From assembly GCA_904502075.1 (NCBI GenBank), contig CAJGDL010000001.1, forward strand, positions 1 through 37,564: a stretch of 37,564 nt of DNA, in the 5' to 3' direction. Made by a program: the position numbers and the translations under genes. This document shows positions 5,569 to 24,288 of this stretch, one piece after another. The notes beneath the pieces were generated by a model. It saw nothing but the letters and a program-made list of their open reading frames with translations. It did not search any database and was not told where the DNA came from. This DNA comes from an uncultured Alistipes sp. (GTDB lineage Bacteria > Bacteroidota > Bacteroidia > Bacteroidales > Rikenellaceae). Each line of letters opens with the position of its first letter. Positions within the stretch are counted from its first letter, which is position 1.

Positions 5569-5672
5569 TTATAGGGCATATTTCACCTTGCCTTGCGCGC
5601 CCCGGATGGGTTGTACTTGAGGTACTACCCATCCGGGACTTGCTGCGTTAAGTCGAAATCTGCTCCTTATAA
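5569..5672 (+). repeat. GTAC-apex palindromic element, copy 1 (subfamily B-like)
   Basis: Apex CCCGGATGGG-TT-GTAC-TTGAG-GTAC-TA-CCCATCCGGG. Outer arms TTATAGGGCATATTTC / GAAATCTGCTCCTTATAA. Confidence 0.8.
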
Positions 5673-5676
5673 GCCA

Positions 5677-5955
5677 GTCATTGCGAAGAGGGCGAAATCC
5701 CGACGTGGCAATCTCCCGTGAAATTCAAAATTCAAGATTCAATTTTTTTTATTCCTAATTCTCCACGTCGTCATCCCGAGGGAGCGTGAGCGACCGTGGG
5801 GATCTTTTTATGGGCGACCAATCGCGAGAATAATTCTCCGATAAAAAGATGGCCACGTCGAGCTTACGCCCTCCTCGCCATGACGCGGCGCGGAGTGGTG
5901 ACGGCTCTCCGCTGCTCGGGAGATTGCCATGTCGCCTTCTGCTCCTCGCCATGAC
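5677..5955. repeat. Cluster of four REP-like GTCATTGCGAG...GGCAATCTC-type repeats (two forward, two reverse)
   Basis: Copies at 5677-5716 (+), 5770-5805 (+), 5847-5884 (-) and 5918-5955 (-). A fifth copy is at 14649-14684. Confidence 0.8.
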
Positions 5956-6020
5956 TGCCATAGGGAATTAGGAATAAGGAATAAAAAATTGTGAATTGAA
6001 ATAATTCCCAATTATTTTCC

Positions 6021-6028
6021 TATCTTTG
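6021..6028 (+). promoter_or_regulatory. -7 box for murA-tdk
   Basis: TATCTTTG lies 27 nt upstream of the ATG at 6056. Confidence 0.65.
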
Positions 6029-6055
6029 TATATCGAACCCGAACCAAAAGAGATT

Positions 6056-7354
6056 ATGGCTATTTTTCAAGTAGAAGGCGGACACCGCCTGCATGGTGAA
6101 ATCACCCCGCAAGGAGCCAAGAATGAGGCTCTTCAGATCCTCTGTGCCACGTTGCTGACCCCCGAAAAGGTGATCGTGAGAAACGTGCCCCAAATCCTGG
6201 ATGTGCTCCAACTCATCGAGTTGCTGAAGGCGATGGGGGTCGAGGTGGAAAAACTCTCCGACGACTGCTACTCGTTCCGCGCCGCCGAGATCAACCTCGA
6301 CTACCTGCAGAGCGAGGATTACCGCCGTCGTGGAGCCAAGTTGCGCGGTTCGGTGATGATGCTCGGCCCGCTGTTGGCCCGTTTCGGAGTAGCCTACATT
6401 CCCAAGCCCGGAGGCGACAAGATCGGTCGCCGTCGCCTGGACACCCACTTCCTCGGATTCCAAAAGCTCGGTGCCGAGTTAGACTTCTCGGCGGGCAAGG
6501 TCTCGGCCAAGGAGTTGAAGGGAACCTACATGCTCCTGGACGAAGCCTCGGTAACGGGTACGGCCAATATCGTGATGGCTGCCGTTTTAGCCAAGGGGAC
6601 GACCACGATCTACAACGCCGCCTGCGAGCCCTATCTGCAGCAGCTCTGCAAGATGCTCAACCGCATGGGTGCCAAGATCTCGGGTATCGCCTCGAACCTG
6701 CTGACCATCGAGGGCGTGGAGTCGCTCGGAGGCACCGAACACACGATGCTTCCCGACATGATCGAGGTGGGTAGTTTTATCGGTATGGCGGCCATGAACC
6801 GCTCGGAGCTTCTGATCCGCAATGTGTCGTTCGAGAACCTCGGCATCATCCCCACCCAATTTGCCCGCATGGGTATACAGTTCGAACAGCGAGGCGACGA
6901 CCTCTACATCCCGCAGCAGGATCACTACCGCATCGAGACCTTTATGGATGGGTCGATCATGACCATCGCCGATGCCCCGTGGCCGGGACTCACGCCCGAC
7001 CTGCTGTCGATCTTCCTGGTGGTGGCCACCCAGGCCAAGGGAGCCGTACTGATCCACCAAAAGATGTTCGAGAGCCGCCTCTTCTTCGTCGATAAACTGA
7101 TCGACATGGGGGCCCAGATCATCCTCTGCGATCCCCACCGTGCCACCGTGATCGGACACAACCACGAGGTGCGCCTGCGCGCTACGCGCATGTCCTCGCC
7201 CGACATCCGTGCCGGCGTGGCCCTGCTGATTGCCGCCATGTCGGCCGAAGGGGTCTCGACCATCCAGAATGTGGATCAGATCGACCGCGGATACCGCGAC
7301 ATCGACCGCCGATTGAATGCCCTGGGAGCAAGAATCACCCGCCTCGACGAGTAG
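6056..7354 (+). CDS. murA: UDP-N-acetylglucosamine 1-carboxyvinyltransferase
   Basis: Motifs [37 protein letters not shown] and IDRGY. Confidence 0.96.
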
Positions 7355-7406
7355 GTTAAAACACCACATAGGTATAACTGCAACAAATAAGGAAAAGAAT
7401 CGAAAT

Positions 7407-7988
7407 ATGTTTTTGGAAAGTTCAACAAAGAAGGGCTGGATCGAAGTGATTTGCGGCTCGATGTTCTCGGGCAAGACCGAGGAGCTGATTCGCCGCATGA
7501 AGCGCGCAAAGTTTGCCAACCAACGCGTAGAGATCTTCAAGCCCCGCATTGATGTACGATATTCGGAGGAGGAGGTTGTGTCGCACGACTCGAATGCCAT
7601 CCGCTCCACCCCCGTGGATTCGGCACAGACCATCCTACTGATGGCCTCGGATGTGGATGTCGTGGGTATTGACGAGGCCCAGTTCTTCGACGAGGGAATC
7701 GTAGAGGTCTGCCGCAAGTTGGCCGACAACGGCGTGCGCGTCATCCTGGCCGGCCTGGATATGGACTACCTGGGAAAACCCTTCGGCCCCATGCCGGCTC
7801 TGATGGCCACAGCCGAGTATGTCACCAAGGTACACGCCATCTGCGTCCGCTGTGGTAACCTGGCCCACCACTCGCACCGCCTGATCGTGGACGACAAGCA
7901 GGTGGTCCTGGGTGCGCAGGATAGCTACCAACCCATCTGCCGCCACTGCTTCGCCGAAGCGATGAAAGCCAAAGGGAACGAGCAATAA
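7407..7988 (+). CDS. tdk: Thymidine kinase
   Basis: P-loop [25 protein letters not shown], and Zn-binding CVRC...CRHC. Confidence 0.96.
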
Positions 7989-8011
7989 ATCGGCCTTCGA
8001 GGAAAGAGCGC

Positions 8012-8050
8012 TACGAGCCTGTCTTAAAACAAAGACAGGCTCGTACTTTA
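8012..8050 (+). terminator. Hairpin/terminator after tdk
   Basis: 14-bp perfect stem TACGAGCCTGTCTT/AAGACAGGCTCGTA with a short T-rich tail. Confidence 0.65.
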
Positions 8051-8087
8051 TGGGGATGCTTGCTTACAGAATAAATGGAATTTATCC

Positions 8088-8358
8088 CCCCCTCTATTGC
8101 ATGGTAAAGATGGGATACTAAGCGAGGAAATTCCGCGCCGACATGAAATTGGGGCGGATGGGTAGTACTTTCGTACGTCCCATTCACCCCAAGGATTGAA
8201 ATGCGAAATTTTCCCCCTCTATTGCATGGTAAAGATGGGATACTAAGCGAGGATATTCCGCGCCGACATGAAATTGGGGCGGATGGGCTGTACTTTGCGT
8301 ACTGCCCATTCGCCCCAATGATTGAGGTGCGGAATTTACCGCTTAGTATTCCATCTTT
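8088..8358 (+). repeat. Tandem pair of GTAC-apex palindromic elements, copies 2 and 3 (subfamily B, period 125 bp)
   Basis: Units 8088-8212 and 8213-8338. Apices ATGGG-TA-GTAC-TTTC-GTAC-GT-CCCAT and ATGGG-CT-GTAC-TTTGC-GTAC-TG-CCCAT. The copy 3 stem spans 8231-8358 and reaches into the PFOR CDS. Confidence 0.92.
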
Positions 8359-22672: not shown

Positions 22673-22747
22673 GGAGATTTATAAGCGGCAAACAACCCTA
22701 AAAAGAGGGTCGGAAGAGGGGTTCAAATTTAAAAAAACTTAAAATTA

Positions 22748-22779
22748 TTTGCATAGCCGTGAGAAAGTTTATATTTTTG
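22748..22779 (+). promoter_or_regulatory. -33/-7 promoter of gap
   Basis: TTTG (22748-22751), 20-nt spacer, TATTTTTG (22772-22779). Confidence 0.7.
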
Positions 22780-22826
22780 CGGTGTTAAAACGAAAACAAT
22801 TGTTTAATCATAAAAATCTGAAAATT

Positions 22827-23843
22827 ATGGCAACTATTAAGATTGGTATCAATGGTTTCGGTCGTATCGGCCGCATGGTATTCCGCGCAGCCTGCACGAA
22901 CGAGAACATCGAGGTAGTAGGTATCAACGACCTCTGCCCTGTAGACTACCTGGCTTACATGCTGAAGTATGACACGATGCACGGCAAGTTCGAGGGTACG
23001 GTAGATTTCTGCGAGGAGAAGAGCCAGCTGATCGTAAACGGCAAGGCAATCCGCGTAACCGCCGAGAAGGATCCCGCCCAGCTGAAGTGGAACGAGGTAG
23101 GTGCCGAGTATGTGGTTGAGTCGACGGGTCTGTTCCTCACGAAGGAGAAGGCTGAGGCTCACATCGCCGCCGGTGCCAAGTATGTGGTTATGTCGGCTCC
23201 CTCGAAGGACGACACCCCGATGTTCGTATGCGGCGTAAACACCGACACCTATGCCGGCCAGACGATCGTTTCGAACGCTTCGTGCACCACGAACTGCTTG
23301 GCTCCCATCGCCAAGGTGCTGAACGACAAGTTCGGTATCGTTGACGGTCTGATGACCACGGTTCACTCGATCACCGCTACCCAGAAGACCGTAGACGGTC
23401 CCTCGTTGAAGGACTGGCGTGGTGGCCGTGCCGCTTCGGGCAACATCATCCCCTCGTCGACCGGTGCCGCCAAGGCCGTAGGTAAGGTAATCCCCGCCCT
23501 GAACGGCAAGCTGACCGGTATGTCGATGCGCGTTCCTACGATCGACGTTTCGGTGGTTGACCTGACCGTAAACCTGGCCAAGCCCGCCAAGTATGCTGAG
23601 GTTTGCGCTGCCATGAAGGAGGCTTCGGAGGGTGAGTTCAAGGGTATCCTGGGCTACACCGAGGACGCTGTAGTTTCGTCGGATTTCTTGGGCGACGCTC
23701 GCACCTCGATCTTCGATGCTACCGCCGGTATCGCTCTGACCGACACCTTCATGAAGGTAGTTTCGTGGTACGACAATGAGTGGGGTTACTCGAACAAGGT
23801 GCTCATGCTCATTGAGAAGATGTACGCCTACAACAACAAATAG
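22827..23843 (+). CDS. gap: Type I glyceraldehyde-3-phosphate dehydrogenase
   Basis: [10 protein letters not shown], active site ASCTTNCL, and [10 protein letters not shown]. Confidence 0.98.
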
Positions 23844-23848
23844 TCATC

Positions 23849-23963
23849 TGTTGTGATAAGGCCGCACCTGCTGCCTATCCCTTGCGAGCCCCGAATGGAA
23901 CATACGCCAAGTATGCCCCATCCGGGGCTCACTGCACGATAGTTACATCTGCAGCCTTCTGAC
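23849..23963 (-). repeat. GTAC-apex palindromic element, copy 6 (subfamily A), 5 nt after the gap stop
   Basis: Reverse complement of 14851-14965 with 2 mismatches. Confidence 0.95.
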
Positions 23964-23966
23964 GAT

Positions 23967-23991
23967 AAGCCGTCGTTACGATGGCTTTTTT
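23967..23991 (+). terminator. Intrinsic terminator of gap, downstream of the element
   Basis: AAGCCGTCG-TTA-CGATGGCTT followed by a T tract. Confidence 0.75.
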
Positions 23992-23993
23992 AT

Positions 23994-24116
23994 TGGGAGA
24001 TATGGAAGATATAGGAGATGTAGGATCTCTATATTTCTCAAAATTCCTATACCTCCTATACCTCCTATACCTCCTACAATTCCTATAATTCACACAACTC
24101 CCATAGTTCCTATCTT
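23994..24116. repeat. Degenerate 9-bp tandem repeat arrays in inverted arrangement
   Basis: About 3.5 units like TAGGAGATA (23994-24025), then about 10 units like TCCTATACC (24027-24116), three of them perfect at 24045-24071. Confidence 0.85.
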
Positions 24117-24163
24117 GTTTCCTCAAATGGTGAGCCAAGAATAGAACACCTTCCCCTCAACAG

Positions 24164-24288
24164 GGTTGTTGTCAGAAGGTTGCAGTTGCAACACTCGGCA
24201 AAAAAAACGCGGAAGGGTTGTACTTAAAGTACTACCCTTTCGCGAGTTTTTTGTTAGCGGCCGCAAATGCGACCTGATCACAACAACC
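24164..24288 (+). repeat. GTAC-apex palindromic element, copy 7 (divergent subfamily A), abutting the ROK gene stop codon
   Basis: Ends GGTTGTTGTCAGAAGGTTGCAGTTGC / GCAAATGCGACCTGATCACAACAACC. Apex CGCGGAAGGG-TT-GTAC-TTAAA-GTAC-TA-CCCTTTCGCG. Confidence 0.88.

Follow-up and report, generated by a model that had tools for sequence, protein, structure and literature searches.

What are the long imperfect palindromes that stand behind a series of housekeeping genes in the genome of an uncultured Alistipes sp. (Rikenellaceae)? The window, meaning the whole stretch of 37,564 nt that was analysed, is one whole contig (CAJGDL010000001.1) of a genome of 1.55 Mb, with 162 contigs, 55.9% G+C and a completeness of 77.6% (GCA_904502075.1). 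A preliminary description had listed seven copies of a palindromic element in this window, at 5569-5672, 8088-8212, 8231-8358, 14843-14969, 19141-19232, 23849-23963 and 24164-24288 (here c1 to c7), and all seven were present. Copies of this element are placed on stop codons or only a few bases away, share one orientation relative to the gene and can be arranged in rows, and their hairpin is under selection on the strand antisense to the neighbouring gene. The best explanation, in which belief and doubt are about balanced, is a genus-restricted, non-autonomous, structure-dependent mobile hairpin repeat of the kind represented by ERIC (enterobacterial repetitive intergenic consensus), REPIN, Correia and miniature inverted-repeat transposable elements (MITEs).

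The covariations quoted in the preliminary description were confirmed in the sequence. ATGGG/CCCAT changed to AAGGG/CCCTT, TTGGGGC/GCCCCAA to TTGCCCC/GGGGCAA and TTCCGCGCC/GGTGCGGAA to TTTTGTGCC/GGTGCAAAA. The compensated change from GTAC/GTAC to ATAC/GTAT was found in c4 (14843-14969) and c6 (23849-23963). A T-T mismatch below GTAC occurred in exactly four of the seven copies (5569, 8231, 19141 and 24164), and the two arm subfamilies were real, with a tandem period of 125 nt. Searches with Pfam detected no transposase or nuclease among the 42 open reading frames (ORFs) of the window, again as had been described; the genes found were housekeeping genes. The two most unusual features had not been included, namely the placement at stop codons in one orientation and the antisense relation of the well-folding strand to the adjacent gene.

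The copy number of this hairpin repeat family is far above chance. An nhmmer profile built from the seven window copies gave 139 matches in the window's genome, which were merged to 82 non-overlapping loci at E ≤ 1e-3. The strict apex pattern was found in 58 places, compared with 0 for a reversed-pattern control. In the window, GTAC-N3-7-GTAC occurred six times against 0.60 expected; the maximum in shuffled sequences was 4, and 0 of 100 shuffles reached 6. Element apexes accounted for five of these six sites, and the sixth (27883) lay inside a gene. The 64 arrays of the genome comprised 50 single, 10 double and 4 triple ones, arranged head to tail with periods of about 125-135 nt. Many element loci were located at contig ends.

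The unit was a single imperfect palindrome of 125-150 nt. The apex consensus read in the seven window copies, CGG-ATGGG-NN-GTAC-N4/5-GTAC-NN-CCCAT-TCG, sat atop a long imperfect stem. On the folding strand, the strongly conserved apex opened with CCGG-A-TGGG, followed by a 2x2 internal loop containing a T·T mismatch and then by the GTAC stem and its loop of 5 nt, which started with TT; the return side closed with one G·T wobble. The arms covaried and formed at least two families (A and B) with several middle modules. The terminal stem was AT-rich, with TAA at its start and TTA at its end, and the element ends read TAATTT.../...AAATTA or TAAGCGG.../...CCGCTTA. Terminal inverted repeats were present, with ends pairing over at least 9 bp, yet they covaried instead of being conserved. 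Both strands of the element were T-rich ahead of the hairpin and A-rich behind it.

Position at gene ends and orientation

Genes were predicted with a purpose-built codon-usage caller, which recovered 24 of 24 Pfam-confirmed window genes on the correct strand. None of the 82 element midpoints fell inside a predicted gene. According to their neighbours, 27 loci were convergent, 31 co-directional and one divergent, and one neighbour was hidden by a contig end at 23. Ten copies lay at contig edges, and of the 72 testable ones, 69 had a co-oriented gene within 400 nt upstream of the gene-sense strand. One of the three copies lacking such a gene was c1, in which the apex is inverted and the arms obey the rule. 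The strand read in the preliminary description was always the one opposite to the gene at whose stop codon the element lies. The GAPDH gene (plus strand) and the ROK kinase gene (minus strand) converge and are followed by one copy each, in opposite orientations and 200 nt apart. Replication direction is excluded as the determinant of orientation, because each of these two copies follows the orientation of its own gene.

In 52 first copies, the apex centre was located 45-84 nt past the stop, with a mode of 60-62 nt. Their stop codons were TAA in 41 cases, TAG in 8 and TGA in 3, compared with genome-wide shares of 61, 30 and 8%. In some places the element donated the stop itself. The stop codon as a strict target was rejected; TAA was enriched, not obligatory, and the spacing between stop and element varied by 0-6 nt or more.

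The same placement was found in other species. A scan with the exact apex pattern across one genome per prokaryotic species returned at least 114 stretches. Among the 80 titles listed, the sources were Alistipes sp., uncultured Alistipes, Rikenellaceae bacterium and Bacteroidetes bacterium metagenome-assembled genomes (MAGs) and one complete Alistipes genome. Of 120 elements at other-species loci, 106 were testable with at least 250 nt on both sides. With a crude criterion, a long ORF ending 45-100 nt ahead of the apex, an ORF end was detected only on the sense side in 78 of these copies, only on the antisense side in 5, on both sides in 16 and on neither in 7.

Such a distribution could reflect a function for the host. 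The element would then be a cis-acting part of the 3' untranslated region (3'-UTR) of the sense mRNA, stabilising it against exonucleases or tuning translation termination or decay, as reported for repetitive extragenic palindromic (REP) and ERIC sequences; its placement would reflect this function and its spread would be secondary. Copies were indeed restricted to 3' ends, with only 1 of 82 between divergent genes. The copy behind GAPDH, c6, is followed by a terminator-like hairpin (23963-23995) and hence has the stop codon on one side and the terminator on the other. RNA-library contigs also run from the ROK gene into an element. These ROK transcript contigs, Logan metatranscriptome contigs from two studies, extended 37-164 nt into it; they carry no strand, ends or level and are weak evidence for co-transcription of the element with ROK. 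For ERIC, orientation-dependent effects on the upstream mRNA and ribosome-dependent exposure to RNase E are described in the ERIC account of PMC2229807. Against a 3'-UTR function, the elements neither replaced nor recruited terminators. By a crude heuristic, a terminator-like hairpin with a T run was found within 120 nt at 13 of 59 arrays and at 77 of 300 control gene ends, which is no difference. Together with the strand preference and the patchy occurrence described below, this makes a host 3'-UTR element unlikely as the primary explanation.

The possibility that the element is itself an intrinsic terminator was rejected. There was no U run directly behind the hairpin on the transcribed strand, and a separate terminator stood behind c6.

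Hairpin structure and strand asymmetry

Covariation was analysed in a MAFFT alignment of 109 copies, comprising 7 copies from the window and 102 from other species after deduplication of 114 full-length ones at 90%. The apex core is fixed by the search pattern in the other-species set, and its invariance there carries no meaning. RNAalifold gave a 17-pair apex stem for the 109 copies, with compensatory double changes in 8 pairs. For the A family, represented by 52 distinct sequences taken from many species of Alistipes, the antisense strand gave a consensus fold with 44 pairs. Canonical cells made up 96.4% of these pairs, compared with 80.0 ± 0.5 in partner shuffles, and 0 of 500 shuffles reached the observed value. 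Sliding the partners by 1-3 columns reduced the canonical cells to 38-46%. Of the 44 pairs, 30 had double changes; shuffles gave 20.1 ± 1.6 such pairs, and none of the 500 reached the observed number. B-type copies showed the same trend, with only 11 rows caught by the filter.

The two strands differed in folding. Mean minimum free energies calculated as RNA for the 102 other-species copies were -67.7 kcal/mol for the antisense and -52.4 kcal/mol for the sense strand, and the sense strand was weaker in 100 of them. In 69 copies of the window's genome, the means were -60.0 and -50.8 kcal/mol, with the sense strand weaker in 60. DNA energy parameters gave the same direction. Single folds reached -78 to -79 kcal/mol with z-scores of -11 to -12.5. 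Sense-strand RNA still folded well, with z about -7 to -9, which agrees with a 3'-UTR element. Its consensus fold was poorer, at -36.6 vs -70.1, and with the sense strand weaker by 9-15 kcal/mol, selection on the other strand argues against such a role. The share of G·U cells was 11.1% on the antisense strand compared with 0.6% on the sense strand. The antisense strand folds better because its many G·U pairs read as A·C on the sense strand.

Apex features were counted in 73 copies of the window's genome that had not been selected by the apex pattern. On the folding strand, the G·T wobble at the eighth pair from GTAC occurred in 67 of 73 copies and was kept while neighbouring pairs covaried. 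The T·T mismatch beside GTAC was present in 47 and the 5-nt loop, mostly starting with TT, in 59. These strand-specific features argue that one strand, as RNA or single-stranded DNA (ssDNA), is what is read.

If RNA is read, the folding strand could be transcribed by downstream read-through or from a promoter, and the hairpin could act as a barrier, as an RNase III substrate or as a small RNA. As a near-perfect hairpin at the 3' border of the gene, such a barrier would stop antisense transcripts from entering it. In agreement with an antisense RNA, selection acts on the strand opposite to the gene, this strand has many G·U pairs, a fixed U·U and G·U in the apex are typical of RNA recognition, and the element stands exactly at the gene border. 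We nevertheless regard this as improbable on several grounds. Of the 59 loci with both neighbours called, 31 were co-directional, where no convergent transcript is expected. No U run followed the hairpin on the folding strand and no conserved promoter-capable flank was seen. Copies decay, as in the apex deletion of the related genome G160, and 23 of 41 genomes of the genus were without the element. The promoter consensus of Bacteroidetes is TAnnTTTG, and a search for it at the element ends, judged by eye, gave near-matches only.

Two further readings of the folded unit were tried and rejected. A K-turn (C/D-box-like) interpretation of GTGATA/CTGA in the A-type arms did not hold, as strand lengths were equal and there was no 3-nt bulge. 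An ORF of 17-18 codons across the apex, from the ATG in GACATGAAA to the TGA in TTGATTGA, was dismissed since several middle modules had no ATG; the stems covaried without regard to its codons.

Turnover, mobility and known systems

The element was concentrated in few genomes. In a family sample of 151 genomes from 31 genera, the window's genome had 58 places, and among 14 further genomes of the genus, four had 36, 7, 2 and 1. Beyond the genus, no more than single places occurred, in 5 of 136 genomes, and the reversed-pattern control was near 0. In a genus sample of 41 genomes, at least one strict apex place was present in 18 and none in 23. The positive genomes had 58, 39, 19, 19, 15, 15, 10, 10, 7, 6, 6, 5, 4, 2, 2, 1, 1 and 1 places.

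Orthologous sites were compared between species. Behind the ROK gene, an A-type copy followed a TAG stop in the window's genome and a B-type copy followed a TAA stop in G160, at 97% protein identity. In 27 other genomes with a readable 3' flank, this site was plain intergenic DNA, often with a terminator, and another locus was cut off by a contig edge. The ROK C-terminus was of conserved length. A ROK gene running to a B-type element end was also found in RNA-library contigs of related strains from two studies. The murA-TK junction was empty in the window's genome, whereas G160 has a copy there; in G160, the ORF enters the element for one codon and ends on a stop that the element provides. The copy at the PFOR site was conserved in G160, in which the native TAG and 6 bases precede the TAA of the element; in the window's genome, the PFOR ORF runs straight into the element's TAA. 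The GAPDH-site copy in G160 had lost its apex. Copies were thus gained, lost, decayed and replaced between species. This patchiness within the genus, with most orthologous sites empty, speaks against a 3'-UTR element maintained for the host.

Among the copies of the window's genome, 24 of 2080 pairs had an identity of at least 90% across 122 nt. The most similar pairs (99.2%, 98.4% and 97.5%) were located behind unrelated genes, and the first two had unrelated upstream flanks. Because near-identical copies of up to 99% lie behind unrelated genes, the element is or recently was mobile.

As a mobile hairpin repeat, the element would propagate through a strand-specific, single-stranded hairpin form. 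As no reverse transcriptase accompanies the element, this form would most likely be ssDNA. A trans-acting protein other than a Y1/RAYT, RVT_1 or IS110 enzyme would read the apex, including its wobble and mismatch, and the element would settle at AT-rich gene ends. Its fixed orientation may originate from the insertion step or from the loss of copies that place a near-perfect 60-bp hairpin in the mRNA. Either way, survival or insertion would be limited to the orientation in which the mRNA lacks the tightly folding strand. There, the element would be transcribed together with the gene, as a hairpin of the 3'-UTR that A·C mismatches weaken, and could donate a stop codon.

Several results weigh against this mobile hairpin repeat. 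No mobilising enzyme was found in searches for Y1_Tnp, RVT_1 and IS110. Y1_Tnp (PF01797, RAYT) had 0 matches in the window's genome, G000, as well as in G002, G003, G090, G160, G081 and G163. RVT_1 and IS110 (Transposase_20) were not found in any of the six most copy-rich genomes of the genus sample. In G000 (78% complete), a scan of A-type ends for a longer element, such as a parent insertion sequence, gave no pair of these ends more than about 104 nt apart. No target-site duplication was recognisable by reading the junctions. To our knowledge, nothing explains how a DNA insertion step would find stop codons in the right orientation, and the G·U share of 11% is more typical of structured RNA than of ssDNA. 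Some orthologous copies were conserved across species at about the level of neighbouring coding DNA, which would also fit a host function.

Details of these searches were as follows. G090 is 99% complete and has 36 copies without Y1_Tnp, which was present in G001 (7 copies) and G131 (0 copies). RVT_1 and Transposase_20 occurred mainly in copy-poor genomes of the genus sample. The junctions showed no consistent direct repeat, and TA followed some 3' ends, not most. The apex pattern had 0 matches in 2.9 million viral contigs. In Rfam, only a tRNA of the window passed the gathering threshold, and E-value searches with four copies gave only sub-threshold matches to generic miRNA-precursor hairpins.

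The checks proposed in the preliminary description mostly turned out in its favour. Covariation was strong, further copies amounted to 82 loci in the genome, relatives among Alistipes and Rikenellaceae carried copies, no Rfam family matched, and filled as well as empty orthologous sites were found. A flanking transposase was not found and a target duplication was not recognisable. The proposal of a non-autonomous, structure-selected element (MITE/REPIN-like) or a structured RNA or ssDNA motif outside the named families was supported overall.

ERIC, also termed IRU, is the closest analogue. The ERIC account in PMC2229807 describes 127-bp imperfect palindromes of Enterobacteriaceae and Yersinia that form end-to-end hairpins and are co-transcribed. 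Like the Alistipes element, ERIC is about 125 nt long, folds end to end, lies between genes in transcribed regions and is without coding capacity, and its orientation matters for the effect on the upstream mRNA (PMC2229807). The same account gives it short terminal inverted repeats, TA duplications and insertion in either orientation (PMC2229807). In contrast, the Alistipes element has a conserved apex and a covarying terminal stem, no duplication was seen, and 96% of copies sit in one orientation, on the stop codon. ERIC is enterobacterial, whereas matches of the Alistipes element were confined to Alistipes/Rikenellaceae among the 80 titles listed; the two were compared by their descriptions.

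REP, bacterial interspersed mosaic elements (BIMEs) and REPINs share with the Alistipes element that they are extragenic palindromes, form mosaic rows and are thought to be read as single-stranded hairpins. Unlike REPs, the Alistipes element had no GTAG or CGTC tag, formed one long hairpin instead of a doublet of 20-40-bp REPs, and did not co-occur with Y1/RAYT. Supply of stop codons to flanking ORFs is described for GTAG REPs in PMC3733652. Correia and RUP repeats have conserved terminal repeats and TA duplications according to PMC2229807. Correia and NEMIS of Neisseria and RUP, BOX and SPRITE of pneumococcus resemble the Alistipes element in being small and non-autonomous, with long-hairpin transcripts and positions near gene ends. 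NEMIS and BOX are likewise small repeats, and SPRITE is terminator-like. We know of no Correia-, RUP-, BOX- or SPRITE-type repeat reported with strict stop-codon placement plus folding of the antisense strand. From a classical MITE, the Alistipes element differs by its conserved apex with covarying ends.

The antisense-strand folding also recalls the attC sites of integrons, which fold from the strand antisense to the ORF, stand behind ORFs and have conserved unpaired bases; the VCRs of Vibrio measure 123-126 bp. Folded single-strand recombination sites, in which a site-specific recombinase reads the strand antisense to the preceding ORF, would match the Alistipes element in size, imperfect palindrome, unpaired bases, folding strand and post-ORF position. 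The RYYYAAC/GTTRRRY core sites were absent at both consensus ends on either strand, however. The apex was conserved and the base variable, which is the reverse of attC. The preceding genes were housekeeping genes scattered over the genome, not cassettes in arrays, and no integrase was found nearby among the 42 ORFs of the window. An attC-like site is accordingly the least probable of the explanations considered here and very hard to sustain.

By the features that define REP/RAYT sequences, attC sites and terminators, the Alistipes family belongs to none of them. Searches of the literature on palindromic or miniature repeats of Alistipes and on REPIN/RAYT in Bacteroidetes turned up no account of such a repeat in Alistipes. 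PMC8040213 includes palindromic candidate RNAs of Bacteroidetes such as HMP2_4205, with 132 bp; these candidates, known here by description only, could bear on novelty. The family is apparently undescribed.

Window copies, adjoining repeats and significance

The individual window copies illustrate the variation of the family. Copy c1 (5559-5677, plus strand) has B-type arms and is located between CstA-like genes and murA, directly behind a terminator-like hairpin (about 5530-5565). It is chimeric, with the apex inverted relative to arms that run as in copies sense to plus-strand genes, which suggests that recombination or template switching between the arms can invert the palindrome tip. In this copy (5569-5672), the usual G·T wobble is replaced by a G-C pair. 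The B-type copy c2 (8088-8212, folding strand plus) is the distal member of a two-copy head-to-tail row behind the PFOR gene on the minus strand and shares 96% identity with its neighbour c3 (8213-8345, plus strand), also B-type. The terminal TAAGCGG.../...CCGCTTA of c3 supplies the PFOR stop TAA (8343-8345, minus strand).

Copy c4 (14843-14970, plus strand) is A-type with the ATAC/GTAT apex and overlaps the TAA stop of FabH (14968-14970, minus strand). Beside it, at 14736-14842 (plus strand), is an 84-nt palindromic module unlike the element, with a duplicated element end (14736-14776 resembles 14820-14860). The module belongs to a repeat mosaic. Within 14736-14860, a unit of 84 nt that has a GC-rich hairpin of its own was repeated, and related TTGGGTGGTG... 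modules were found behind many elements elsewhere. In some of these modules, a 3' half-element was joined to a small hairpin, forming a BIME-like mosaic. The B-type copy c5 (19141-19244, plus strand) reaches with its outer end to the TAA stop of purB (19242-19244, minus strand); its distal arm (copy at 19141-19232) is without the outer part and is cut short beside a terminator-like hairpin.

Copy c6 (23844-23965, folding strand minus) is A-type with the ATAC/GTAT apex and begins 5 nt past the GAPDH TAG stop (23841-23843, plus strand). It is reversed relative to the other window copies, and a segment of 127 nt is 95% complementary to 14846-14972 at c4. The hairpin behind it (23963-23995, plus strand) is a classical terminator-like one with a T run. 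The A-type copy c7 (24164-24290, plus strand) directly adjoins the ROK glucokinase gene at its TAG stop (24288-24290, minus strand). Between c6 and c7, at 23996-24074, another long palindrome is built of TATAGGAG-like short repeats. It gave only sub-threshold miRNA-precursor matches in Rfam, and similar repeats were present on contig C44 of the genome.

Small hairpins centred on CGTTACG, e.g. GGGGCGTTACGCCCC and CCGTCGTTACGATGG, adjoined elements at 23963-23995, at about 14765-14790 and on several contigs. Some were followed by T runs and were terminator-like, and they may constitute a distinct family of short repeats. AT-rich short repeats of the GAAATTCAAAATTCAAGATT type were found between genes on both strands (5719-5739, 14717-14737 and 26459-26479), with similar runs on other contigs. 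In G160, AATTAGG heptamer arrays started at or after the stop codons of TK (contig C63) and an M16 peptidase (contig C186). Behind a tRNA-Thr(CGT) gene at 2414-2486 stood a terminator-like hairpin segment (2488-2558), and a second copy of this segment followed at a distance of 125-126 nt (2614-2683); a second tRNA was not detected within 2414-2683. A 1238-codon open frame (8322-12038, plus strand) was antisense to the PFOR gene (8343-11873, minus strand) and longer than the real gene. Shadow ORFs of this kind were common in the window's genome and mislead gene calls based on length.

Three features do not agree with known families: near-exclusive placement at stop codons, fixed orientation relative to the gene, and clear selection for folding of the non-mRNA strand with a conserved wobble and mismatch in the apex. 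Together they suggest that a single-stranded form exists and that a protein reads it, in bacteria that are abundant in gut and rumen. For the genomes concerned, the elements can supply stop codons and alter the 3'-UTRs of genes of central metabolism (PFOR, GAPDH, purB and FabH), and their copies offer strain-level markers. The repeats also break MAG assemblies, because many copies lie at contig ends. More speculatively, and with the chances clearly on the side of doubt, the family could be a branch of a widespread uncharacterised class of strand-specific, stop-codon-anchored hairpins whose folded strand is opposite the mRNA and which are read by machinery outside the known hairpin transposases, reverse transcriptases and IS110 recombinases. 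If this is true, ssDNA or RNA could be moved or used in a new way by such machinery, which would sense gene ends and the direction of transcription. Should other phyla follow the same logic, a general, undescribed class of mobile or regulatory element would be defined.

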